DNA of 64,000 nucleotides from the NCBI GenBank assembly GCA_965219085.1, contig OZ244720.1, positions 1,792,001 through 1,856,000 on the forward strand, given 5' to 3'. Positions within the stretch are counted from its first letter, which is position 1, and each line of letters starts with the position of its first letter. Of the stretch, positions 44,728-64,000 are shown one piece after another. This DNA is from Dehalococcoidia bacterium. Its GTDB lineage: Bacteria; Chloroflexota; Dehalococcoidia; UBA2979. The position numbers and the translations under genes were made by a program. The notes below the pieces were generated by a model, which was given only the letters and a program-made list of their open reading frames with translations, had not been told where the DNA came from and searched no databases.

Positions 44728-46271
44728 CCGAGGGCTCCGTGATCGGGGCCGCGCCGGGCCACGTCTGGCTCGTCGGCGCGGGGCCGGGCGATCCCGGCCT
44801 CGTCACTCAGGCCGGGCTGCGCACGCTGCGCGACGCCGAAGTCGTGCTCTACGACCGTCTCGCACCGCCTGAACTCCTCGACGCGTGTGCCGATGGCGCC
44901 GAGCGCATCGACGTCGGCAAGGCGCCGGGCCGCGCCGCGATGACGCAGGAGCAGATCAACGCCGCGCTCATCGAGCATGCGCGCGCCGGCAAGCGCGTCG
45001 TGCGGCTCAAGGGCGGCGACCCCTTCGTGTTCGGTCGCGGCGGCGAGGAGCTCGAGGCACTCGCCGCGGCGGGCCTCGAGGCGACGGTCGTGCCGGGGGT
45101 CACCTCGGCGATCGGCGGGCTCGCCGCCGCCGGCATCCCGGTCACGCACCGCGGCGTCGCGGCGAGCTTCGCCGTGGTCACGGGGCACGAGGACCCCACC
45201 AAGCCTGCCGCACAAGTCCGATGGGCCGAGCTGGCGACCGCGACCGACACGCTCGTCGTGCTGATGGGCGTGGGCCGCCTCGACGGCATCGCGCGCGCGC
45301 TCATCGACGGCGGACGCCCGCCGTCGACGCCGGCGGCGCTGGTCGTCGAGGCGACGACGCCGCGCCAGCGTGTGGTCGAGGCCCCGCTCGGCGGCATCGC
45401 CGAGGCGGCGCGCGAGGCGCGCGTCGAGCCGCCCGCGCTGCTCGTCGTCGGCGATGTGGTTTCGGTACGCGAGCGCGTCGCGCCGGCGCTGCGCCGCCCG
45501 CTCGCGGGCTGGCGCGTGCTGGTCACGCGCACGCGACAGCAGGCCTCGACGCTCGCCGAGGCGCTGACCGCCGAGGGCGCGCAGCCCGTCCTGCTCCCCG
45601 CCATCGAGATCGCCCGCCGCGCCGACCCCGGCGCCGTCCGCGCCGCCATCAAGACACTGCGAGCAGGCGCCTATGACTGGGTCGCGTTCACCTCCGCGAA
45701 CGCCGTCGAGGCCTGGTTCGACCTCGTGCGCGAGGCGGGCGAGGACGCGCGGGTCTTCGCCGGTGCGGGCCTCGCCGCCGTCGGCGCGGCGACGGCGCGC
45801 GCGCTCGAAGCGCGCGGGCTGTCGGCTGACCTCGTGCCGACGCGCGCGAGCGGCGACGGCGTCGCCGATGCGCTCATCGAGCGCGGCGTCGAGGGCGCAC
45901 GCGTCCTCGTCCCGCGCGCCGAACGCGCCGACCCGGCGCTCGTCGAGCGCCTGCGCGCCGCCGGCGCGACGGTCGACGAGGTCACGCTCTACCTCGCGGC
46001 CCCGCCCGCCGCCCCACCGCCCGAGGTGCTCGACGCCGTGCGCGCCGGCGAGATCGACGCGGTGACGTTCACCTCGTCCTCGACGGTGCGGAACCTCGCC
46101 ACCCTCCTCGGCGGCGACCTCGACGCGCTGCGCGAAGCGGTGGTGGCGTGCATCGGCCCGCAGACGGCGGCAGCGGCCATCGAGGCGGGGTTGCCGCCGC
46201 AGGTGGTGTCGGAGCAGCCCTCGGTCGACGCGTTGGTGGGGGCGCTGCGAAGATACGCGGCGGAGGCGTGA
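44724..46271 (+). CDS. cobA: Uroporphyrinogen-III C-methyltransferase / uroporphyrinogen-III synthase fusion (CobA-HemD)
   Basis: VGAGPGDP, RLKGGDPFVFGRGGEE, then VLVTR, FTSANAV, FTSSSTV. Confidence 0.93.
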   Translation: MTEGSVIGAAPGHVWLVGAGPGDPGLVTQAGLRTLRDAEVVLYDRLAPPELLDACADGAERIDVGKAPGRAAMTQEQINAALIEHARAGKRVVRLKGGDPFVFGRGGEELEALAAAGLEATVVPGVTSAIGGLAAAGIPVTHRGVAASFAVVTGHEDPTKPAAQVRWAELATATDTLVVLMGVGRLDGIARALIDGGRPPSTPAALVVEATTPRQRVVEAPLGGIAEAAREARVEPPALLVVGDVVSVRERVAPALRRPLAGWRVLVTRTRQQASTLAEALTAEGAQPVLLPAIEIARRADPGAVRAAIKTLRAGAYDWVAFTSANAVEAWFDLVREAGEDARVFAGAGLAAVGAATARALEARGLSADLVPTRASGDGVADALIERGVEGARVLVPRAERADPALVERLRAAGATVDEVTLYLAAPPAAPPPEVLDAVRAGEIDAVTFTSSSTVRNLATLLGGDLDALREAVVACIGPQTAAAAIEAGLPPQVVSEQPSVDALVGALRRYAAEA

Positions 46272-51892: not shown

Positions 51893-51951
51893 CGCGACGG
51901 TTGGGGGCTCAAAAGCGCAGCGCTTGAGCGATTTCTGCTTTGGGGGCCACC

Positions 51952-53082
51952 GTGCAGCTGACCGTGCAACAAGAGGACCTGAATCGAGGCCTCAGTGCCG
52001 TCGCGCGCGCCGTCCCAACCCGCTCCACGCTGCCAATCACGAACAACATCCTGCTCGAAGCCGACGACGACCAACTCACACTCTCAGCCACCGACGCCGA
52101 GACGATCGCGATCACCTACCGGATCGCGTCGGGCATCACCGAGGCGGGCACCATCACGCTGCCCTCGCGGCTGCTATCGGACTTCGTCGCCACGCTGCCG
52201 CCCCAGCCGATCGAAATCTCGCTCGCCGAGCGATCCCGGCAGGTCAGCCTCTCGTGCGCGCGCAACGAGGCGTCCATCGGCGGGCAGGCCGCCGACGAGT
52301 TCCCGCCGATCCCTCCGGTCGAGGACGGCGACACGATTCGCATCGACGCCGCCGCACTCCGCCGCTCCATCAACCAGGTCGCGTTCGCGGCCGCCACGGA
52401 CGACTCGCGGCCCGTGCTCACGGGCGTGCACTTCGCGCTGCGCGACGGCTCGCTGCGGCTCGCCGCGGCCGACGGGTTCCGCCTCGCCGTGAACACCATC
52501 GAGGTTGGCGAGGACAGCGCGGACCGCGAGGCGATTGTGCCGGCGCGCGCCCTGAACGAACTGGCGCGGCTGCTCCCGGAGGTGAGCGAGCAGATCTCGG
52601 TCACCTTCAACCCGGCAAGCACGCAGGTGTTGTTTGACCTCGGTCACGCCACGCTCGTCGCGCAGCTCATCCAGGGCACGTTCCCGAACTACGAGCAGCT
52701 GATTCCCAGCAGCCACGCCACGAGCACCGAGGTGAGCGTCGGCGAATTCATGCGCGAGACGCGCATCGCCTCCATCTTCGCGCGCGACGGATCGGGCATC
52801 GTGCGGCTCATCGCCAGCCCCGGCGAGGACTCGACGGGCCGGCTGACGGTGACGGCGCGCGCGGAAGAGGTGGGCAACAACGAGGGCGAGATCGACGCGC
52901 TGGTGGAGGGCGAGGAGGCCCGCATCGCCTTCAACAGCCGCTACCTGATCGAGGTCCTCGGCGCCCTCGACACGGACCGCGTGGCGATCGAGACAAGCTC
53001 GCCCTCAAGCCCCGGCGTCATCCGCCCCGTCGGCAACGACGATTACGTCCACGTCGTCATGCCGATGTTCGTTCAATGGTAG
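51952..53082 (+). CDS. dnaN: DNA polymerase III beta sliding clamp
   Basis: LSATD, SRPVLTGV, AADGFRLA, FPNY, IAFNSRYL, VVMPM. Confidence 0.96.
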   Translation: MQLTVQQEDLNRGLSAVARAVPTRSTLPITNNILLEADDDQLTLSATDAETIAITYRIASGITEAGTITLPSRLLSDFVATLPPQPIEISLAERSRQVSLSCARNEASIGGQAADEFPPIPPVEDGDTIRIDAAALRRSINQVAFAAATDDSRPVLTGVHFALRDGSLRLAAADGFRLAVNTIEVGEDSADREAIVPARALNELARLLPEVSEQISVTFNPASTQVLFDLGHATLVAQLIQGTFPNYEQLIPSSHATSTEVSVGEFMRETRIASIFARDGSGIVRLIASPGEDSTGRLTVTARAEEVGNNEGEIDALVEGEEARIAFNSRYLIEVLGALDTDRVAIETSSPSSPGVIRPVGNDDYVHVVMPMFVQW

Positions 53083-54607
53083 CAAAATCCTTTGCCTCCA
53101 CTCCCTCGATCATCGGCACCTCGACGCGTACATCGGCCTCATCAGGAGCGACGTTCACTCGCACCTCGAGGGCCTGAAGCAGCAGCGCCAACTCGTCCCC
53201 GTCTGCCTCCCTCACCCACTCGCGGATGAACTCAAGCGCTTCCGGCATGCGCTCCCGCAGCAACTCTGGATCGGGGCCGGGCTCGCATTCTGAGCGGAGC
53301 TGTGCCTGCTCGCGCTCCAGCGCAGCCCGACGCCTCGTCAGTCGCTCCTTCTTCTCCTGGAAGGCGTCCCTGGCGATCTCACCCTCCGTGTAGAGGTCGA
53401 CGAGCCGGTCTTCGCTCTCGTCGAGGTGGCTGAGCTCCCGTGTGAGCTCGGTCAGCCGGGCAGCGTGGTCCGTCCCGCCCCGCAGCCGCTCGGCCATGCC
53501 GATCGCGAGCTCCGGGTTCGCCAAGACGTCCCCGATCGTGTCGCGGACGGCCGACTCAAGGACTTCCTTCCGAACCAGGCGGCTCGCGCAGCGCTTGTCC
53601 TCGCGGGAGAGGTACAGACGGTTGCAGCGATAGTAGAGGTAGCGCCCGCGGTTGACGGACTGCCCGACCATGCCCGCACCGCAATCCCGGCAGCGGAGCC
53701 GCCCGCTCAAGGGGTACGTGCGCGACGGAGCCCGCGCGTTGCGACGCTCGGGGTCTTCGAAGCGGGCCTGAGCGCTGGCGTACAACTCGGGGGAAACGAT
53801 CTGCGGCGACGCCCCATCGATCACGATGTGTTCGCTCGGATCCTGCTCGACCACGCGCCGCTTCCGACTACGGCCACCGGATTGTCGGATCATCTCAGCC
53901 TTGGTGCGCCGGTAGACGGTGCGGCCGGTGTAGGTCTCGTTGCGCAGGATCCGGTGGACCGTCACCGGGTACCACTGCTTGCCGGTTAACGTCGGGATGC
54001 CGTCGGCGTTGAGCTCGGTCGCGATGCGGTTAACGGCCTTGCCCGAGGCGAACCCCTCGAAGATGCGCCCAACGACGGGCGACTGCTGGGGATTCAGCAC
54101 GCGCTGTCCTGTCTCGCGGACGTAGATGTACCCGTAGCACCCCGCGCCGGTGCCCTGAGCGAGCTGGCCATTGCGGGCGCGCTCGGCCTTGCCGCGCATC
54201 GTGCGCTCGGCGATCTTCTCGCGCTCGACCTCGGCAATGAGCGCACGCGCGGCCACGATGAACTTCCCGATCGCGGTGTCCTCGAAGTCCTCGGTCGCGA
54301 AATCGAGGCGCACGCCGCTGGTCTCGGCCTCGTCGAAGAGCACGCCGATGTGATTCTGACTCCTCGATACGCGGTCGAGCGCGAAGGCGAGCAGCACGTC
54401 GCACTCGCCGTCGCGCATCATGCGACGCACTTCGGCCATCCCCGGCCGCTCGAGCGACGACCCGCTCGCAGTGTCGCGGATCGTGCGGATGACCGTGTAG
54501 CCGGCCGCTCCCGCGTACTCCAGGCTGGCGCGCTCCTGCGTGTCGAGTGAGGTGCCCTCATCCGCTTGCGCGTCGGTCGACACCCTCGAGTAGACAATCG
54601 TTCGCAT
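53057..54607 (-). CDS. Large serine recombinase (integrase)
   Basis: YSRVST catalytic Ser, DRVSR, recombinase domain, Zn ribbon CRDC...YYRC...C, coiled coil. Confidence 0.93.
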   Translation of the reverse strand: MRTIVYSRVSTDAQADEGTSLDTQERASLEYAGAAGYTVIRTIRDTASGSSLERPGMAEVRRMMRDGECDVLLAFALDRVSRSQNHIGVLFDEAETSGVRLDFATEDFEDTAIGKFIVAARALIAEVEREKIAERTMRGKAERARNGQLAQGTGAGCYGYIYVRETGQRVLNPQQSPVVGRIFEGFASGKAVNRIATELNADGIPTLTGKQWYPVTVHRILRNETYTGRTVYRRTKAEMIRQSGGRSRKRRVVEQDPSEHIVIDGASPQIVSPELYASAQARFEDPERRNARAPSRTYPLSGRLRCRDCGAGMVGQSVNRGRYLYYRCNRLYLSREDKRCASRLVRKEVLESAVRDTIGDVLANPELAIGMAERLRGGTDHAARLTELTRELSHLDESEDRLVDLYTEGEIARDAFQEKKERLTRRRAALEREQAQLRSECEPGPDPELLRERMPEALEFIREWVREADGDELALLLQALEVRVNVAPDEADVRVEVPMIEGVEAKDFATIERTSA

Positions 54608-54610
54608 GTT

Positions 54611-54856
54611 CTACCCCCGTTGCATTCTACCGCGTGAGACGCCCTGCACTGCGGTCTTCGTCGTTGTCTCGACTTCGTCTTCCCGCGTCGCGCCAGCAGC
54701 TGCTGCGTGCGCGATCGTCAACTCAGTGAGGATCCGGCCCCAGAGGTCATTCCATGCCTTCACAGGCTCGTCTCCATACACGTCGACCTCGAGCCGCGCG
54801 CGAACTTTGCGCGACCCTCCCGTCTGCTTTGTGTCGCTCCTGCTGTCTCCACTCAT
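54611..54856 (-). CDS. Small hypothetical protein directly upstream of the recombinase
   Basis: 81 aa, stop 3 bp before the recombinase ATG, GGAG-like RBS. Confidence 0.6.
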   Translation of the reverse strand: MSGDSRSDTKQTGGSRKVRARLEVDVYGDEPVKAWNDLWGRILTELTIAHAAAAGATREDEVETTTKTAVQGVSRGRMQRG

Positions 54857-55308
54857 CCCACTCCACCCGGCGACTTGGCCGCGACTGAGACATGCTCATC
54901 ACGGCGGCTTGTTGCTCGCCGCCGTTGGGTTCGCGCCGGCGGCGGGCGCAAGGCCCCCCGAAGGGGGCCGGGCACGGCCAAGCCGCACGCCCGACGTGGG
55001 AGAGGCCACCCGGGAGCGGTCAGTCGCGAGAGCGGAGCAGGATGGGCGGTGTGGAGCGGGCTTGGTCGGTCTGAGGGCTCGGACTGCGAGGTGGAGCGTC
55101 AGGCCTCAGGGACAACGGACTGGAGATCCCGCCTCACCGGGGATCCCGAACACTGGCTGGATAAGGGGAGGAAGAATCGCAATCGTTGGGGAAGTTCAGG
55201 AGGAAGGTGGTCTGGGGGAGGTGGTCGATTTCAGTACCGTCAGTGGGTGGGACACATTGGCGCGCACGCGCCGGACGGAGCCAGCGTTGCCGTCACCCCC
55301 CACGCACG

Positions 55309-55330
55309 AAAAACCCGCCTCGCGGCAGGT
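55309..55330 (-). terminator. Putative intrinsic terminator
   Basis: Minus-strand hairpin ACCTGCC-GCGA-GGCGGGT followed by a T-run, downstream of the 55362 ORF. Confidence 0.55.
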
Positions 55331-55361
55331 CTCCGTACGGCAGGACGCAGGGCAGGGAGCG

Positions 55362-55691
55362 TTACGGGGTGACTGTCCCGTCGATGACCGGTTGCCCGAC
55401 CTCGACGATCCGTACAGCCGTGCCGGCCGACAAGTCGACCAGCTTCCCGTACAGCAGCCACTGGCCGGCGCCCAGAATGGCGAACCCGGCCAGCACGACG
55501 CTCAGGACCGCACCTGCGGCCCAGCGCATCTCCCCGCGAAGCGTGGCAACGTCACTCCGTAGTGACGCCAGCTCCGCCTGAATGACGGCGAGGTTGGCGG
55601 TCGCAGCGGCTTGCACTGTTTCCACCTCCCTCTGCGCAACTGAGACCGCTTCAACACGGTCCTCCAGTCGCTCCATCCTGGCTAACACCAT
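55362..55691 (-). CDS. Small coiled-coil protein with a C-terminal TM helix
   Basis: RBS AAGGAG; heptad pattern, then WAAGAVLSVVLAGFAILG. Confidence 0.65.
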   Translation of the reverse strand: MVLARMERLEDRVEAVSVAQREVETVQAAATANLAVIQAELASLRSDVATLRGEMRWAAGAVLSVVLAGFAILGAGQWLLYGKLVDLSAGTAVRIVEVGQPVIDGTVTP

Positions 55692-55881
55692 AGCGGACTC
55701 CTTCGAGCCCTGCACCGCCAGACCCTCTGGCGGTGACGACGCCTGGCCGAGCCCCGCGAAGGGCCATGGCCGCGCGTCGTCGAGGTGTCGCACTGGTGAG
55801 TGTTGCTAGCTGCCGTGACCGCAGCCGGCCTCGCCACCGCCCGCTCATGGCGGCGATGGCGACGAGCAAGGGCAGCGTCTT

Positions 55882-56444
55882 CTAGGCCACGGGCGCTTGC
55901 CCGAACGGCGATGCGACTCGGGCGCGCTCGTCCCGCGACAGCGCCATGTACCTGTGTATGCGAGCGCCGTGCTGACGCGCGATCTCCACGCTCTGCTCGT
56001 CATGGTCGCGCGTATGCGGGCCATCGAGCCAAGCGACCACCGACTCCGCGACGCCACGCGTGAGCCCCGCCGCGCCGTCCGTTTGGAACAGCGGCTGCCA
56101 GGGGTAGAAATCGTCCTCGTCGTCGACGACGGCGTAACGACTCAGCCCCGGGTTCCGATGGAGCCACAACGCGACTTCGTCGCCGCGGAGCGCCTCGGCG
56201 GGCAGCGTGTCGGTGCACGCGTGTATCACCACGCGGCCGCTCACTCCCGCAGCAGGTCGGCGTACTTGCGCCACGAGCTCGCGAGCACGGTGTAGACCGG
56301 GACGACCGACGCCACGATGAAATCGAAGTTCGCCGCAAGCGATTCTTCAATCGAACCCATCGCCGCATCTCGACGGTGCCGGTTCAGCACCCCGTCCACG
56401 TCCAGGAACACACCATGTCGTCCCCGCGTTGTCTGTCCATCCAT
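55882..56444 (-). pseudogene. HAD phosphatase of the Swiss-army-knife RNA-repair type (HAD_SAK_2-like), frameshifted near 56243
   Basis: FLDVDGVLN...SSWR in one frame; RGDEV..WL...YAVVDD...TD...GLT in the next. Confidence 0.72.
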
Positions 56445-56981
56445 GAGCCTCTCCTCGTGTACGGCCCGCCGAATGGCGTGGTGCTCGCTAGCTGTTGTGA
56501 ATGCAGCCGACCTCGCGGTCGCTCGCCGCCTCGGTCATGGCGACGAGCTCATCGCGATGCTGCCCGTCGCCGGTCCACGCCGGGGCGAACCCCTCCGCCA
56601 CCATCACGGCGTCGATGGAGACTCCCTCCAGCGTGTAGACGTAGCGCAGCGTGCGGCCGTGCTTGTCCGCCTCCCGCGGGCCAGGCTCGACCAGGACCGC
56701 CTCACCGACGAGCTCGCGCAGCCGGTTGGTGGCCTCCATGTAGCAGGCTTCGCCGCGCTCACGTGTGTCGATACCGTAGAAGCGGATGCGGCGACCGTCG
56801 GCGATGTCGAAGGTGTCGCCGTCAACGACCGCGACGACCTCGACGCGTTCGGTTGGCTCCCGTGGCGTGACGGCCGAGACGTCGGCCAGTCGCGTTGTCG
56901 CTGTGACCCGACCCCTTGAAACGGGACCACCGTTGATGAGAGTCCTCTGGCCCATGAAAGTGGGTGGAGGAGGACATCACG

Positions 56982-57260
56982 GTGAAACGACGCAGGCACA
57001 CGCCCGAGCAGATCGTGCGGAAGCTGCGGGAGGTGGAGCGGCTGCTCGGTGAGGGGCAGACGATCGCCGAGGCGGCGAAGCAGGTCGAGATCTCGGAGCA
57101 GACCTACCACCGCTGGCGCAACCAGTACGGCGGGATGAAGGCCGACGACGCCAAACGGCTGCGCGAGCTGGAGCGCGAGAACGCCCGGCTGAAGCGGATC
57201 GTCGCCGACAAGGAACTCGAGATCGACGCGCTCAAGGAGATCGCCCGGGGAAACTGGTAA
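56982..57260 (+). CDS. IS3 transposase OrfA
   Basis: HTPEQIVRKL, TYHRWR..YGGM, LERENARLK; GGGAAAC slippery site at the end. Confidence 0.9.
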   Translation: MKRRRHTPEQIVRKLREVERLLGEGQTIAEAAKQVEISEQTYHRWRNQYGGMKADDAKRLRELERENARLKRIVADKELEIDALKEIARGNW

Positions 57261-58113
57261 GCCCGTCGCGCCGGCGCGAGGCAGTCTGCATGTTGCAGGA
57301 CCGCCTCGAGTTGTCGGAACGGCGGGCATGCCGGGTCACCGGCCAGCACCGCTCCACACAGCGCCGCCTCCCGACGCGCGGCCGCGGCGACGACGCGCTG
57401 CGCGCGGAACTCCACGCCTTCTCGCGTGGCCACCCCCGCTGGGGGTACCGCCGGGTCTGGGCGACCTTACGCGAGGAGGGCTGGGGCGTGAATCGCAAGC
57501 GGGTGCAACGGCTCTGGCGTGAGGAAGGGCTGCGCGTCCCGGTGAAACGGCGCAAGCGTCAGCGCCTGGGGGACTCGGCGGTGCCCGCCGCCAGGCTGCG
57601 CGCTGAGCGGCCGAACCACGTCTGGGCGCTGGACTTCCTGTTCGACCAGACCGCGGACGGGCGGGTCCTGAAGCTGCTCAACATCGTCGACGAGCACACA
57701 CGGGAGGCGCTGGCGATCGTGGCCGCAGGAGCATCAACGCCGACGCCACGGCCTCAACGCTCGAGGGGATCGTCGCCCGGCGCGGGACGGCGCCTGGGTA
57801 CATCCGCTGCGACAACGGTCCAGAGCTCACGGCCAACGCGCTGCGCGACTGGTGCCGGTTCTCCGGCACGGGCAGCAGCTACATCGAGCCCGGTGCGCCG
57901 TGGGAGAACCCGTACGTGGAGTCGTTCAACGGCCGGCTGCGCGACGAGTTCCTGGCCGTCGAGCAGTTCGACAGCCTGCTCGAGGCGCAGGTGCTGCTTG
58001 AGGACTGGCGGATCGAGTACAACACGAAGCGCCCGCATAGCAGCCTGGGCTGGCTCGCCCCGGCTGCCTACGCCGAGCGCTGGGAGGCTCAGCAGCACGC
58101 TGGACTCTCATAA
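57257..58113 (+). pseudogene. IS3 transposase OrfB with an extra frameshift near 57727
   Basis: WGYRR, WALDF, IVDEHTRE; then CDNGPE, PWENPYVESFNG, YN..RPHSSLG in another frame. Confidence 0.85.
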
Positions 58114-58510
58114 GCGGTGGTCTCGCGAAGGGGGTCCGGTCAGCTGCACCGGCGCCCTCGGGGGTGGCGTTCTGCGCGTCGCCGGCCATGTCCAGCAACG
58201 TCTCGCCCCCGGAGTACATGAGCATGGTGAAGAAGCTCCCCACCACAATGCCGACCAGCGCCCGGATGATGAACCGTATGAGCTGTGTGTCTTTCTGGTG
58301 CTGAGCACCGAAAACGCCGGCAGCGCCGGCGTGAGTGAGTTGGTTGCCGATACCGAGGCCCCTATTGGGCGGCGACGACGCGCCCGCGACGAGCACAGCA
58401 AGAAGCCCTCCTGTTGAAGGAGGGCGTCTGCTGTGCCGAGTGCGCTTGCGAGGCAGCGCCGCCTGTTCACGGCAGTCCAGGGTCGCCGGAATTACGACGC
58501 CCCGGCGAGT

Positions 58511-58599
58511 CGCTGGGTTGATGAGGATTCGCGGCATCGGACTGCGGGCATCGAAAAACCCGCCGGATGGCGGGCTGTCGATGTGCGCAGGAGAGCGAT
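58511..58599. repeat. 89-bp direct repeat, copy 1 (contains a minus-strand terminator hairpin at 58559-58574)
   Basis: Aligns without gaps to 59126-59214. Confidence 0.9.
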
Positions 58600-58995
58600 C
58601 TAGCGATCGCGGAGGGCCTCGGCTAGCGAATCCCCGATCTCGATGGTGACTGCGCCGTCGCCACCGAGTACAACCGCGAGTGTGACAGCGATTGCAGCCA
58701 CTGCAATGACCAGGCCAAGCAGATTCAGGCTCGTCTTCAGCGAGTCCATCCTGCCGTCGAGCGAACCGATCTTGGTGTTGAGGTCGGAGCGGACCGAGTC
58801 GATCTTGGTGTCGAGCGAGTCCATCTTGGATTCGAGCGACGACAAGGCGGACGCGATCGTCTTCGCCGTCGCTTCCATGTTGTTCTCGACTGCTTCCATC
58901 TTCGTGTCCTGCGCAGCCAGTCGCGTGTCGGACGCGGCTATGGCCACACTTACTGCTGCGCGATCCTCAGCAGCTGGGTTCTCTACCGATGCCAC
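58600..58995 (-). CDS. Coiled-coil protein with Bdr/KID-like repeats and a C-terminal TM helix
   Basis: SKMDSLDTKIDSVRSDLNTKI repeats, then LLGLVIAVAAIAVTLAVVL; RBS AAGGGG. Confidence 0.65.
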   Translation of the reverse strand: MASVENPAAEDRAAVSVAIAASDTRLAAQDTKMEAVENNMEATAKTIASALSSLESKMDSLDTKIDSVRSDLNTKIGSLDGRMDSLKTSLNLLGLVIAVAAIAVTLAVVLGGDGAVTIEIGDSLAEALRDR

Positions 58996-59125
58996 CTGTT
59001 TCCCCCTTGGAGTGTACATCCGCCGCCGGAGCCGTGCGCTCTGGCGCGCTCGTCCGTTGCCGAGTCGTGGTGACTCGGCAACGGACGAGCGAAGCGGCGG
59101 CAGGTGATGCCGCCACTTCGGTCGC

Positions 59126-59214
59126 CGCTGGGTTGATGAGGACTCGCGGCATCGGGTCGCGGGCATCAAAAAACCCGCCATCCGGCGGGTTGTCGATGTG
59201 CGCTGGAGAACGAT
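59126..59214. repeat. 89-bp direct repeat, copy 2 (terminator hairpin at 59174-59189)
   Basis: Aligns without gaps to 58511-58599. Confidence 0.9.
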
Positions 59215-59542
59215 TCGCCGAGTAGGCCCGGTCAGCCGCTAGATGTACTGACCACACAGGTGTGAGACACGGCCGACGGGCGGGAGGCCGCCGAGCGAGC
59301 CGTGGGGACGGTGCCTGTTGTACCACCTGAGCCACCCTGCGAGGGCTCTCGCGCGGTTCGCACTGGACGGGTAGGCGAAGGCGTATGCCCAGCTCCGCAG
59401 CAGCATCTGGATGAAGCGCTCCGCCTTGCCGTTGGTGCGCGGCGTGTAGGGCCGCGTCCGCAGGTGGCGCAGCCCCAGCTCGTCGCAGCGAGCCCGCCAG
59501 GCGTGCGATGCGTACGCGGGCCCGTTGAGTTCCTAACGGATG

Positions 59543-60943
59543 TCAAGCTCCGGCGAGGGGTTGTAGCGTAGGCAGCGGACGGGCCGGCGCCGGAGCGCTC
59601 TGCGACTCCTGACCGCGGCGGCCCGTCCCCTTGCGCGAGCCCGCGCGGGGGCCGAGTCGCTGGCGGCGCACCTCGGCTGGGACGCTGTAGCGCTCGGCGA
59701 CGATGCTCCGCCCCTCGGCCACGGAGACGGGCTGGCCGTCGCAGTCGCGGATGACGTAGCGCTCGCCGCGCCGCCAGCAGGCGACGACGCGCGTGAGCAG
59801 CGTGGTGGCGATATGGCAGAGCGCCGAGTTGTGGTGCTTGCCGGCGGCGACCATGAGCCGCTGGTAACGGGCGGCGAGCGTGGGGTCGATGCGCCGCGCA
59901 TGGTCGGCGGCGATGAAGATCGCCTCGCGCAGGGCGGCGTCGCCGCGGCGGGTCGGACGGCCGTGGCGGCCGCTCACGCCGGAGGCGTTGAGCGAGGGCA
60001 CGAGCCCGCTGAAGGAGCGCACCCCGGCGAGGGAGCGGAAGCGGTTGGGATCGCCGAGGCGGGCGAGGATCTGGGGACCGGTGACGGGACCGATGCCCGG
60101 CGCCGAGGTGAGGATCGCCTCGGGGTCGGCCTCCTCGAAGAGGAGCGCGATGCGCTCGTCGAGCGCGGCGACCTCGTCTGTGAGGATGAGGGCGAGCCTG
60201 GCCTCGACGGCGATGTCCTCGGCGAGCTGGTCGAAGTCGAAGGCGTCCTCCCAGAGCGCGAGCGTCTCCTCCGCGGCGTCCAGCAGCGCCGCAGCGTGCT
60301 CCGGGCCCCAATGGCCGCGCGAGTGGCGATACAGGAAGCGCCCGAGGCGCGCCCGGCCGAGCCGTTCCACCGTGTCGGGACAGGCGTAGCCGGCTGCAAG
60401 GAACCGCAGCGGGGTCTTGTTGGCGAGGTCGGCGCGGAAGGCCTCCAGCCACTTCGGCCCGAGCAGCTCCAGCAGCGCGTCGAGCCGCGCCAGCGACTTC
60501 GTGCGCCGCTGCACCAGGCTCTGACGCAGCCGCGTCGCGCGCCGCAGCGGGTCGCCCGGCCCGAGGCCGTGCTCGTCGTGCAGCCCCTCGGGGTGCAGCA
60601 GCGGGAGCCGCGCCAGCAGACGCGAGTCGAGCCGGTCGCTCTTGGTGTGCTTATGGTAGTAGTCGCGCAGGTCCGCCGAGCGCTCCGGCGGCACCAGCAC
60701 GACGCGTGCGCCGCGACGGCGGAACCAGGCGGCGAGCGCCACCCAGGCGTTGCGCGTGGGCTCCAGGATCACCAGCACCTCGGTGTCTGTTCCTCGCTCG
60801 GGCAGCATCGCCCACAGCCGCTCGAGGTCTTCGGCCCCGGTGCGGAAGCGGTGTCCGCTCCAGAGGAAGCGCCCGCTCTCGTCGGCGAGGCTCGCCTGGT
60901 GGGCGGCCCGGGACGCGACGTCGATTCCCAACCACAGCTGCAT
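59543..60943 (-). CDS. IS110-family DEDD recombinase (transposase)
   Basis: LGIDVA, ILEPT, KSDRLDS, SAPGIG, FSGLVP..NASG. Confidence 0.93.
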   Translation of the reverse strand: MQLWLGIDVASRAAHQASLADESGRFLWSGHRFRTGAEDLERLWAMLPERGTDTEVLVILEPTRNAWVALAAWFRRRGARVVLVPPERSADLRDYYHKHTKSDRLDSRLLARLPLLHPEGLHDEHGLGPGDPLRRATRLRQSLVQRRTKSLARLDALLELLGPKWLEAFRADLANKTPLRFLAAGYACPDTVERLGRARLGRFLYRHSRGHWGPEHAAALLDAAEETLALWEDAFDFDQLAEDIAVEARLALILTDEVAALDERIALLFEEADPEAILTSAPGIGPVTGPQILARLGDPNRFRSLAGVRSFSGLVPSLNASGVSGRHGRPTRRGDAALREAIFIAADHARRIDPTLAARYQRLMVAAGKHHNSALCHIATTLLTRVVACWRRGERYVIRDCDGQPVSVAEGRSIVAERYSVPAEVRRQRLGPRAGSRKGTGRRGQESQSAPAPARPLPTLQPLAGA

Positions 60944-60969
60944 ACAGTCGCTCCGTTCCTGCACCCCCG

Positions 60970-61225
60970 CGCTCACTCGGTCCGCGCTGGCCACCGGAGA
61001 GGGACGTCGTACCGGACATTCGCTAACAGGGATCCGGGCGCCACCGCCCGGTCACCGGGTTCCCAACAGGACGCTTCGTCCCCGGCGGTGGCCCCGCCCG
61101 CCTCGTGGTCAACAGGCCAGGAGTCGCGTTGCGCTCCGATCGGTCAATCAACGACGGCGGACAGGCGCCGGACCCTCTGATCCTGAGGCCGGCCGGCCGG
61201 TCCGGCCAGCATCCGGAGGGCAGAT
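60970..61225 (-). ncRNA. Putative bridge RNA (ends approximate)
   Basis: Minus strand in order: TGACCGATC (61146-38), hairpin, GGCCTGTTG (61118-10), TTGGGAACCC (about 61066-57), GAATG (61021-17); partial matches to target and donor junctions. Confidence 0.62.
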
Positions 61226-62061
61226 CCAGATTGAATGTCCGTCATCACCGCTTCGACCGTGATGCCCTGTTCAGCGAACCAGTCGAGCGTCCGCTCGAGG
61301 AACGCGAGGGCATCGTGGCGGCGGTCCGTGGGGAGCACCTCGGCGTAGGCCAGCCGCGAGTGGTCGTCGACGGCGACGTGCACGTGCTGCCAGCCCGCGC
61401 GCGGGCTGCGCGTGACCCCGTCGCCCAGGATGCGCTTACCGACGTGCCAGAAGCGCCCCAGCTTCTTGGTGTCTATGTGCAGCAGCTCCCCCGGGCGCTC
61501 GCGCTCGTAGCGCACCACCGGGGGTCGCGGCTCGCGCGGCAGCCGCGCGGCCCAGCCGCCGCAGCACCTTGCCCACGGTCGAGGCGGGGCGGCCGAGCAT
61601 CGCGCCCAGGGTGAGCGGGCCGGCCCCGCTGCGCTCGCGCGCGGCCACGATCTCGGCCTCCTCGGCCGGGGAGAGGCGGCGCGGCTGGTGCTTCGGGGTG
61701 GAGGGACGCTCGCGCAGTCCCGCCCAGCCGCCGGCCCGGTAGCGCGCGAGCCAACGGTAGCCCGTGGCACGGCTCGCGCCGACGCTGGCGGCGGCCTTGG
61801 CGGGGCTCATGCCCGCGAGCATCGCGGAGATGGCGCGGCAGCGCGCCTCGAACGAATAGAGCATCCGCTCGGGCCTGTTGGTGGCATCATGCATCGGGAC
61901 CTCCTTCGGAACCTGGGTCGTGTTCAACCCCAAGTCTCGTCGGAGGCCCCTTTGCGATCAGGTGTCTCGCAGGTGTGTAGTCAGTACAGCTAGAGGCTTC
62001 GTGCCCCCAACGGTAGTACGCGAGTCCCGCGAGGATCGTCACCTTGCCGATAGCGAGGTCT

Positions 62062-62529
62062 CTACCGGGCGGCGACGCCCGCGCGCTCACCGTCGATGCG
62101 CGGGTCCCTGTCGAGCCACAGGTCCTCATCGCCGTGGCGGGCCGCCGTGCGAGCGGACGCCACCTGGGCCTCGGCGGCATTGGCGGCGGCGCGAGCGCTG
62201 AAGAGCATGTCGAGCGCGCGGTCGCCCGACTTCAGGGCGCGCCAGCGGGCCTCCCTCGCGTACGTCGGGCCGCGTGTCGCGAGGCGAGTTGCGTCCGCGG
62301 GGCGTTCCTGTTCGGTCAGCGCGAGGTGGTACATCTGCCCGGCGTGCGCGTGCTGTAGTTGGGCCTGCTCCGTCGCCTTCGGGTCGCCGAGGTGACGCGT
62401 ATCCCGCACCGCGGCTGCTGCGCGTCGTACCTCTCCGAGCGTGGAGTCCGCGAACCTCTTGGCCCTCGCCGCGTGCGTCGCGGTCGCCTGCTGGTCGGTC
62501 AGTTCGCTTGTCGCCTGGTTGGTCGTCAT
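62062..62529 (-). CDS. Hypothetical helical protein
   Basis: RBS AGGAG before the ATG; 155 aa. Confidence 0.55.
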   Translation of the reverse strand: MTTNQATSELTDQQATATHAARAKRFADSTLGEVRRAAAAVRDTRHLGDPKATEQAQLQHAHAGQMYHLALTEQERPADATRLATRGPTYAREARWRALKSGDRALDMLFSARAAANAAEAQVASARTAARHGDEDLWLDRDPRIDGERAGVAAR

Positions 62530-63171
62530 CGGGACAGTCTCCTAATGGGTCTTCCGGGAGCACTACGCCGCCGACATCGTGTCGTGCGGCAAGACGGACC
62601 CCCTGTGTTGACGGGAGTCCGCGATTGACCTCGAGGGGTGGGGTGTCACCTGTACGCGCGCACGTAGGAAGCACAGCCACACGCAGAGTCCCGGCGCAGG
62701 GCGCAGGAATCCCCGTGGGGCGATCGTCGAGGTGGCGGGTGAGTGACGAGACACCATGCTGCAGCGAGTGCTGCATGGTGAGCCCTGGGCGCGGATCGAG
62801 GTCGGTCCGCGAGCAGGTGTCCGCTTACACAACTCCGCCCACCGAAGAATGGTGGTCAGCGTTGCGCAGGTGGCCGGAGGTCGTCAGCGTGAGGTGCCGG
62901 GATCTCCTGCGCGCTTGGTTGTTCGCGAGTCCGCAAGCGGAGTCGGGAGCATCGTGCGCGAACGATGTCTAAGCAAGCTCATCCGAAGATGTGCGAGCTG
63001 CTGGCTGGATGGTTGTACGAGGCCGGCGGATGAGAGCGAGTGTCCTCGTCTGCTATCTGCCGCAACTGCTTCGTCCAGTCTCGTGTTTTGGATGAATCCT
63101 GGCTCACGAGTGCAGCGCTGTATTGAGGGCGGTAGTGTCCCCGTCCCGCGACCAGCCAGTCAAGGGGGTTA

Positions 63172-63576
63172 AGCGTCCGTGGACAGACTTTCTCTGTCCG
63201 CAGCGTCCGTGGACACTTTTTCCGCCTCGTCCGCAGCGTCCGTGGACACCTGTCCGCCTCGTCCGCAGCGTCCACGAGGCTCAAGCGCTGCCCACGCACA
63301 GGCCCAGGACGAGCGTCCGCAGCGTCCGCGAGGCTCAAGCGCGGCCCCACGGACAGGCCCAGGACGAGCGTCCGCAGCGTCCGCGAGGCTCAAGCGCGGC
63401 CCCACGGACAGGCCCAGGACGAGCGTCCGCAGCGTCCGCGAGGCTCAAGCGCGGCCCCACGGACAGGCCCAGGACGAGCGTCCGCAGCGTCCACGAGGCT
63501 CAAGCGCGGCCCCACGGACAGGCCCAGGACGAGCGTCCGCAGCGTCCACGAGGCTCAAGCGCGGCCCACGGACAGC
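63172..63576. repeat. Tandem array: about 5.7 copies of a 55-bp unit preceded by three shorter related units
   Basis: Unit GCGTCCGCAGCGTCC(G/A)CGAGGCTCAAGCGCGGCCCCACGGACAGGCCCAGGACGA at 63313, 63368, 63423, 63478, 63533 (partial), with a degenerate copy at 63259. Confidence 0.95.
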
Positions 63577-64000
63577 CCGGAGCAAGGCGCACATGAGTCG
63601 CCAGGGCGCCCTCCGCGCGCCGACAGCGCCGCATGAGGGGGCCATGACCGCCAAAAGTGTCCGTGAGACGTGTCCACGGACAGAATCCATGCACGTTAAC
63701 TATAGATCTCTCTCATTAAGTTTCTTTTCTTGTCTCTCGTCCTCCGCCTCTTCCCGCTCCCCACTCCTCATTCCTCGCTCCTCGCCTCTCGCTTCTCGAC
63801 ACCCCATCCGCATCACCATTCCCCGCCCCATCCTTCCCCGTGCCTTCCACGCTTCTCCACGACCCATCCACTTCCACCCCTCCTGCTCCGTGCCACCTCT
63901 GCTCCTGGCTCATCCACTCTTGCTCCTTCACGCTCCACCCCGGCTCGCCCTGCTCTCCTGGCCCCGGCCACGTCACGGGGATCGCTTCCACCGCGTAGCC

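Follow-up and report, generated by a model that had tools for sequence, protein, structure and literature searches.

In the genome of a Dehalococcoidia bacterium, the last codons of dnaN, the gene of the β sliding clamp, are overlapped by the end of a convergent gene for a large serine recombinase. Has a mobile element entered the clamp gene at this point and, if so, what has its entry done to the ends of both genes? The window analysed here is a stretch of 64,000 nucleotides (G000:C1:1792001-1856000) from a genome that consists of one contig of 3.31 Mb with 69.8% G+C. It very probably contains the left attachment site (attL) of an element that the recombinase, a serine integrase, put into the last codons of the single-copy dnaN; the replaced tail of the gene would have been displaced to the far end of the insertion, and the attachment site of the free element (attP) would lie within the integrase open reading frame (ORF).

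Organisation of the dnaN Locus

The dnaN gene (51940-53082, plus strand) encodes a protein of 380 aa with the Pfam domains PF00712, PF02767 and PF02768 and the C-terminus ...HVVMPMFVQW. Its end reads GTTCAATGGTAG, with the stop codon TAG at 53080-53082, and according to a tblastn search the gene is single-copy in the genome. The integrase gene (53057-54607, minus strand) encodes 516 aa and is present in its integrated, attL form, with the C-terminus ...DFATIERTSA and the stop codon TGA at 53057-53059; it belongs to 'group A' of the recombinases described below. The two ORF ends overlap antisense over 26 bp (53057-53082, both strands), as had been stated in a preliminary description of this DNA from the ends MPMFVQW-stop (53082) and TIERTSA-stop (53057). 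The same description pointed to GTT CAA, dnaN codons 378-379, as a departure from the preference of the gene for G or C at third codon positions. The departure is real, since only 32 of the 380 codons end in A or T and GTT and CAA account for 2 of 31 valine and 4 of 14 glutamine codons, respectively; the pair is, however, one of three adjacent A/T-ending pairs in dnaN, the others being codons 10-11 and 15-16. This codon signal is genuine yet weak by itself, and the comparative data carry the weight.

The integrase comprises a resolvase-type catalytic domain (Resolvase, PF00239, E 2e-28, residues 4-148), a Recombinase domain (PF07508, residues 173-284) and a zinc ribbon (Zn_ribbon_recom, PF13408, residues 299-357), the domain set of large serine integrases. 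Residues R8, V9, S10, T11 and Q14 of the motif RVSTDAQ are nearly invariant in 20 homologues. Solved structures of full-length integrases match the protein over residues 3-434 (9iu2) and 47-400 (9dxh), and the catalytic domains of γδ resolvase and TP901-1 integrase match it as well. The model of homologue P0017 contains a long helix pair (H316-344/H350-377), predicted with moderate confidence. A scan of 52800-55000 for promoters and terminators found nothing; since no terminator-like site follows dnaN, its transcription may read through into the integrase gene in the antisense direction.

Far Junction and Probable Crossover Position

A second copy of the dnaN end beyond the window had been proposed in the preliminary description, and it was found. 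The 15-base pattern ATGTTYGTNCARTGG has exactly two matches in the genome, both on the same strand: the dnaN end and G000:C1:1978896, where ATGTTCGTNCARTGG lies outside the window, 133.8 kb downstream of dnaN. The far junction reads ...TTCTGAACAGTGATACCC-ATGTTCGTGCAATGG-TGAGAAAAATCC..., that is, an exact ATGTTCGTGCAATGG plus TGA follows an arm unrelated to dnaN. The displaced tail is followed on the right by the 3′ portion of a recombinase gene of a second type, read in antisense, in which only the zinc-ribbon domain is present; this remnant has 86% DNA identity over 917 bases to the recombinase abutting dnaN in a relative, G014. Such a junction is as expected if the window element entered a dnaN end already bearing an older element; the older tail and the older integrase would then have been pushed outward by the new insertion. 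A short-word BLAST search of the genome with 53000-53140 matched the true displaced tail at just 15/16 bases. The best hits of that search (17/17 at 2959794 and 17/18 at 1228769) lie inside other reading frames and were judged to be chance matches. A weak third tail at 1983888, with two mismatches followed by TGA, is left unproven. A search for the far boundary by synteny found no conserved DNA or gene order behind dnaN among relatives, just insertion sequences (IS) and paralogous families.

The attL region (53040-53100) and the far junction (G000:C1:1978762-1978913) agree solely over CCS-ATGTTCGT (CCSATGTTCGT). Within this genome, attL and the right attachment site (attR) differ to the left of ATG and from the ninth base onward. 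In two other genomes, G017 with an element of 12.3 kb and G087, from another genus of the family, with an element of 16.2 kb, the two junctions differ at the sixth base (TTT vs TTC). Provided that no later mutation has occurred, strand exchange would have taken place within CCGATGTT (53062-53069), with host DNA to its left; the crossover is thereby narrowed, by inference, to eight bases. A putative dyad, TGA-N13-TCA, centred on ATG would fit a crossover in this interval. The comparison of attL and attR places the crossover in the 3′ end of dnaN, where the preliminary description had expected it. A short shared core with hybrid attL and attR, such as serine integrases produce, is seen both in the junctions of this genome and in the comparison of empty ends (G015 and G009) with a filled one (G001).

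With the crossover in CCGATGTT, the element would provide the last three codons of dnaN and its stop, and host DNA would provide the final two codons of the integrase and its stop. The minimum dnaN end supplied by the element would be 53070-53082 (plus strand), comprising the wobble base of Phe377 and then Val-Gln-Trp-stop; the integrase end supplied by the host would be 53057-53064. Native-type dnaN tails have the form GTCGCCTGG (VAW).

Another site of the far-junction type is located outside the window at G000:C1:867920-868073, on the minus strand and ~977 kb from dnaN. It consists of an arm of 134 bases, 82% identical to the arm at 1978.8 kb, joined to ATGTTCGTCGCATGGGGCTAG (MFVAWG-stop, a native-type dnaN tail). 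The genes dnaA (G000:C1:1443985) and dnaN (1843940) are 400 kb apart, and both dnaA (1.444 Mb) and the GC-skew minimum (1.38 Mb) are close to the midpoint between the 867.9-kb site and the dnaN island, so that an origin-centred inversion may have split an old array. No inverted repeats of at least 150 bases were found between 860-905 kb and 1975-2000 kb.

dnaN Ends in Related Genomes

Thirty relatives were searched with DnaN and their loci scanned with both proteins; 16 dnaN 3′ ends from the same genus were readable. Nine of these carry a convergent recombinase that aligns over at least 390 residues with 43-52% identity to that of the window, and two carry C-terminal recombinase remnants of 51 and 109 aa; in the remaining five, no recombinase was found within 1.5 kb of the dnaN 3′ end. 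The dnaN identity among those relatives is 76-96%. No convergent recombinase was found at dnaN in ten loci from other families. Since the same dnaN codons are overlapped by convergent recombinases in 9 of the 16 relatives, the arrangement is not due to chance.

At least four groups (A to D) can be distinguished by the DNA that follows the dnaN stop, and the form of the last dnaN codons tracks the recombinase group, not the host clade. The group B tail is always GTGCAGTGGTGA and the group C tail TTTGTTCAATGGTGATAAA; group D has TTTGTTCAATGGTCTTAA, with an added serine (VQWS-stop). Two hosts of group D agree at 70 of 70 bases downstream; immediately ahead of the tail they differ at two codons, and their dnaN genes are 95% and 77% identical to that of the window. 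That the tail form follows the recombinase group across host clades bears out the suggestion that the element supplies a replacement clamp tail.

Empty sites were compared as well. The dnaN of G015 ends with ATGTTCGTCGCCTGGTCCTGA (VAWS-stop), and this tail together with 51 flanking bases (66 identical bases) recurs in G001 at 3212904, behind an element arm and 196.5 kb downstream of the G001 dnaN. In G009, dnaN runs straight into the flank that is shared by G015 and displaced in G001. The dnaN genes of G015 and G009 are thus joined directly to the flank that lies 196.5 kb away in G001, which answers the call of the preliminary description for a comparison with empty-site genomes.

Two extra C-terminal fragments of dnaN were detected among the relatives, at G003:C4:3125-3406 and G026:C131:4546-4626; the first covers residues 288-380 at 72% identity and the second residues 354-380, at a distance of ~500 bp from the end of the gene. 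Certain insertions displace longer parts of dnaN. At G006:C1:928616-929911 (L034), the alignment of dnaN is split, since ~100 additional bases separate residues 205 and 214 within a single open frame of 544 aa; this may be an in-frame insertion in the clamp.

Predicted C-Terminal Extension of the Integrase

The preliminary description placed attP inside the integrase ORF and expected the C-terminus of the enzyme to differ between the integrated and excised states. Across 17 distinct far-junction arms, the integrase frame in all cases reads RT[SW][AV]SLFR[NST]DKIERVP[VL]VV... and continues into a basic stretch, a stop being reached after 25-37 codons; the 57 nt tested contain no stop in this frame. 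Column entropies by codon position are 0.41/0.41/0.66, so the variation is concentrated at third positions, and arginine is spelled AGA, CGA or CGG. The synonymous share of single-base codon differences is 0.51 in the integrase frame and 0.16-0.41 in the other five frames; the arm sequences are related to one another, and this codon comparison is no formal test. Judging by these patterns, the far arm appears plainly conserved as coding sequence. The attP half-site of such enzymes is ~25 bp, and conservation of the arm extends beyond it. Because the extension is conserved as protein at 17 junctions, the excised integrase should be ~30 residues longer. The findings agree with both expectations: the arm adjoining displaced tails is conserved in the integrase frame, which continues into it, and the integrated form ends two codons past the crossover, so that the ORF would span attP and have its C-terminus replaced on integration, the arrangement of the Mx8 type (see below).

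In 4 of 4 cases (this genome, G017, G004 and G087), a group A integrase or its remnant at dnaN pairs with this arm type at the next junction; at least three further arm types were seen. A search with the C-terminal half of the integrase gave 30 database homologues, of which 20 were fetched. Fifteen have the C-terminus TIE(R/Q)T(S/W)A or something close to it (TTEQTSA), a sequence that corresponds to the antisense of MP(CCG/CCC)MFVQW; the survey of recombinases with such ends that the preliminary description had suggested thus leads back to the dnaN tail. The other five run on into arm-type sequence. In other large serine recombinases of the genome, the last conserved motif, DEDFVSIAKPEP (cf. 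ADFVTIERT), ends at the matching place.

Inserted Island and Related Elements

The left 10.9 kb of the inserted island lies in the window (53083-64000), and the island continues to the far junction at G000:C1:1978895 (window-equivalent 186895). In the window part, it encodes a staphylococcal-nuclease-like protein (56488-56955, minus strand; PF00565, E 5.8e-8), a transposase-like ORF (57290-58417, plus strand; HTH_21 and a partial rve core) and an IS110-family transposase (59543-60994, minus strand; PF01548 and PF02371). A Pfam scan between the junctions covered 66 ORFs, with an 8471-aa ORF left out. Giant ORFs of the island encode 1732, 1947, 2106, 2915, 3627 and 8471 aa; the five that were scanned contain fn3, cadherin, Big_9, subtilase, sulfatase and glucose/sorbosone dehydrogenase domains. 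The 8471-aa ORF (G000:C1:1867596-1893011) and its neighbours lie inside the island, and related repeats are found at many places in the genome. The island also contains many IS, regulators, defence-like genes, and HEPN/nucleotidyltransferase, KAP NTPase and ThiF genes; an HTH-ImmA/IrrE gene and a PemK/MazF gene adjoin the far arm.

The dnaN-linked elements of G014 and G018 have a common block of 10.8 kb that is 80% identical to two places in the genome of the window, the copies of a conjugative element at G000:C1:730579-746869 and ~2627497-2641868. The copy at 730579-746869 contains VirB4/TraC-like, coupling-protein and relaxase-like genes and a serine recombinase of its own; the presence of these genes in the shared block implies that the dnaN-linked elements of G014 and G018 are conjugative. 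The recombinase at 730579-746869 converges on a gene with an aminoacyl-tRNA-synthetase anticodon domain, tail-to-tail at another housekeeping gene.

Upstream of dnaN, the neighbours in the window are genes for a solute-binding protein and a class-III aminotransferase, not dnaA. At 45000-46250 of the window, G+C rises to 0.78 over ~1.2 kb, compared with 0.66-0.72 around dnaN and the island.

Tandem Arrays and Distribution

A query composed of the far arm and the tail matches 13 of 19 genus genomes, often repeatedly (three matches in G015, three in G001, two in G004 and three on contig 4 of G013). In the genomes checked (G015, G001, G004, G010 and G009), the matches are on the dnaN strand and downstream of the gene. 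Beyond the tails that adjoin these arms come the ends of group A, B or C recombinases or native-type flank, which indicates that elements pile up in tandem behind dnaN. Several co-oriented displaced gene ends, each behind an arm, are thus present, as in arrays of the SCCmec type; the genome of the window has one co-oriented copy.

In a class-wide scan of 201 genomes, ATGCCSATGTTYGTNCARTGGTRR was present in 134 and a reversed control in none. Fifteen of the 201 have at least two tail copies, several on the same strand and 0.6-44 kb apart. Eight of these 15 were fetched; a related recombinase is located at the tail in two (G087 and G191), and none was found in the fetched stretches of the other six, that of G114 containing one copy only. 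In three genomes of other families (G136:C27, G166:C3 and G203:C74; L088-L090), a second copy of the final 30-54 bases of dnaN lies 0.6-1.7 kb downstream, with no related recombinase between the copies; such duplications may reflect small insertions or be scars left by elements of another kind. In G191:C251 (L094, 14673-17740), a displaced dnaN tail is flanked by two serine recombinase genes that are oriented toward each other. One of them reads toward the site from the far side, so that the integrase of a dnaN-targeting element is not always dnaN-proximal.

A scan of species-representative genomes with the integrase yielded three loci in metagenome bins labelled Gemmatimonadetes, Dehalococcoidia and Gammaproteobacteria; each comprises integrase, tail and foreign arm, and none adjoins a whole dnaN. 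Among viral contigs, one close relative (51% identity) was found on a linear fragment of 22% completeness, where tail-tube and tape-measure genes stand beside an integrase of 552 aa that reads through the tail. These long forms (the five homologues, the three bin loci and the viral contig) could be free elements or array junctions, which look alike. Taken together, the sequences suggest that many unrelated elements, including conjugative elements, a tailed prophage and islands, stack behind dnaN in the genus and the class, each leaving a displaced tail.

Public sequence runs were available as contigs, which cannot reveal rare forms. Their summed depth peaks at 53028-53121 (357, 593, 43 and 238), compared with mostly 7-20 in other bins; a smaller peak is at 53874-53967. 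The contigs break at 53053 and 53072, and loose ends at 53080-53083 continue into many different sequences. Peak and breaks fit many elements sharing the tail and are silent on excision.

Proposed Mechanism and Alternative Explanations

According to the proposed mechanism, strand exchange would occur inside CCGATGTT. The integrase-side arm would bring its own copy of the dnaN end, ...MPMF being followed by an element-encoded VQW and stop, and because this arm carries the dnaN end the clamp would stay whole. The old tail would be pushed to the far junction, 133.8 kb downstream, behind the other arm of the element. In the free element, the integrase ORF would cross the crossover into that other arm and gain ~30 residues (SLFRxDKIERVPxVV and a basic end); after integration, the integrase would end two host-encoded codons past the crossover (Ser-Ala-stop). 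The junctions, displaced tails, empty sites and conservation of the extension at the protein level are established observations; the precise crossover point, the form taken on excision and any effect on the activity of the integrase are inferred.

Several findings weigh against this scheme. Among 66 ORFs of the 133.8 kb (the 8471-aa ORF not included), Pfam recognised no genes for conjugation or phage structure, and it likewise detected no type IV secretion ATPase, coupling protein or relaxase of an integrative conjugative element in these ORFs or in the window part; the stretch is an IS-rich mosaic island with no recognisable element. A second site of the far-junction type, with a native-type tail at 867939, lies on the opposite strand; the region is rearranged, and which arm belongs to the window integrase is therefore uncertain. 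The ORFs that read through the tail (P0017, P0024, P0029, L084 and L096) may be tandem-array junctions and are thus no proof of the excised form, and neither an excised circle nor a restored empty site (attB) of this genome was seen in the contig-level runs, which are blind to rare forms. Recombinases of groups A, B and C cross the dnaN tail in three different frames, so the residues encoded over the tail itself are incidental. An AlphaFold2 model of the natural long homologue P0017 (20 sequences) has a mean predicted local distance difference test (pLDDT) score of 62, with 22-30 for residues 433-483 (tail and extension); the model thus lends a role of these residues no structural support. No candidate for a directionality factor was found by Pfam near either end.

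Part of this evidence favours a fossil copy, in which the integrase is intact and the 134 kb is an immobile, rearranged pile of old insertions with a far arm from an older element. Such a history is a serious possibility, short of an even chance: the mosaic content with no transfer or phage genes found, the further arm of this type, joined to a native-type tail and located on the opposite strand at 867.9 kb, and the decay of relatives to remnants of 51 and 109 aa all speak for it, whereas the full-length integrase ORF with its catalytic motif, the conserved core and arm kept at both junctions and the pairing of this arm type with group A integrases in 4/4 cases speak for an element that has kept its ends. 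It is slightly doubtful that the 134-kb island is still able to excise. Two further explanations dispense with a crossover in the clamp gene. The crossover might lie downstream of the dnaN stop, the whole tail being host DNA and the overlap a case of tight convergent packing. MPMFVQW-stop is indeed a common clamp end across the class, even with no recombinase nearby (L023-L033), but the displaced copies start at ATGTT, inside the ORF, in different hosts the tail codons go with the element group, an extra residue (VQWS-stop) is present in one such group and native-type tails in the genus read VAWS-stop or VAWG-stop; this placement is highly improbable. Still more improbable is a domesticated, non-mobile host gene (e.g. 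an invertase or a regulator) fixed beside dnaN. The recombinase does occupy the same position in many species of the genus, yet its copies share 43-52% identity where dnaN shares 76-96%, they form at least four sequence groups, they are absent in 5 of 16 relatives and decayed in two, and the downstream DNA of group D is identical in hosts that differ just upstream in dnaN. A recombinase fixed here with no displaced tail at a far boundary was the outcome that the preliminary description had set against integration; the displaced tail and this divergence point the other way.

Integration into dnaN being accepted, the exchange of the integrase C-terminus may still be a by-product with no regulatory effect; attP would then simply coincide with the 3′ terminus of the integrase gene, and the residues added in the free form would be dispensable. 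The odds of this are about even. The three recombinase groups that cross the tail in three frames are in its favour, as are the other recombinases of the genome, whose last motif ends at the matching place and suggests that the folded protein ends at the crossover, and the extension, which is modelled as disordered. On the other side, the extension is kept as protein over ~20 codons in 17 junctions, past the attP half-site of ~25 bp, and synonymous changes are enriched in the integrase frame only; protein-level conservation and this enrichment imply that something selects on the extension residues. It is nevertheless doubtful that the tail exchange alters the activity, stability or direction of the integrase. 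The preliminary description had raised a built-in switch as a possibility. A fuller version, a covalent switch, appears unlikely: the conserved, basic and probably disordered tail of the longer free integrase would be needed for integration or would tune it, its swap in dnaN would lock or bias the resident enzyme until excision, antisense silencing from dnaN may add to the effect, and a guild of unrelated elements would have converged on the clamp-gene pad across the class.

Comparison with Known Systems and Significance

Large serine integrases, exemplified by Bxb1, phiC31, A118 and SPbeta SprA, are enzymes of phages and conjugative elements. The window integrase has the same set of Resolvase, Recombinase and zinc-ribbon plus coiled-coil parts, and its structural matches include 9iu2 and 9dxh/YokA; a short shared core, one integrase at the element edge and insertion into a protein-coding gene are likewise common to both. 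The present case differs in its target, the last codons of the essential dnaN, kept intact by a replacement that the element brings, in the location of attP within the integrase ORF and in the several divergent integrase groups that share one target. Islands of the SCCmec type are inserted by Ccr serine recombinases into the final bases of rlmH/orfX, at its 3′ end; the element restores the gene end, and such elements pile up in tandem with repeated copies of the site. Here, in contrast, a single integrase takes the place of the CcrAB pair, the target gene is essential and the integrase ORF spans the site. In the integration-dependent immunity of mycobacteriophages, which have tyrosine integrases, attP lies inside the repressor ORF, and integration removes the C-terminal tail of the repressor and changes its behaviour; at dnaN, the truncated gene would be that of the serine integrase itself, not a repressor.

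Myxophage Mx8, the attB sites of which are tRNA-linked, has a layout like that of the dnaN element; its integrase is of the tyrosine type and that of the window a serine recombinase, so the latter is not a member of the Mx8 type. According to a review (PMC6070905), the attP of Mx8 is contained in the coding sequence of its integrase, so that the gene acquires a new 3′ end on integration, and the altered integrase (IntP/IntX) stays active with changed specificity. The new integrase end described here, unlike that of Mx8, comprises just two residues from the dnaN antisense strand. A literature search, which did not extend to supplements, found no paper naming dnaN as an attachment site, and a limited search found no serine integrase regulated by rewriting its own gene end on integration. 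With Mx8 as the precedent for tyrosine integrases, the dnaN layout lets the same question be asked cleanly for a serine integrase.

The clamp gene is essential, and the C-terminal residues of its product are important for function, so an element inserting within dnaN needs to bring a functional substitute; here, elements of several unrelated integrase lineages bring one. The dnaN end is a conserved natural landing pad with many pairs of integrase and site to mine, and the hot spot behind it makes up ~4% of the chromosome in this genome. Since the native VAWS or VAWG end becomes VQW with the element, mobile DNA here edits a core replication protein.

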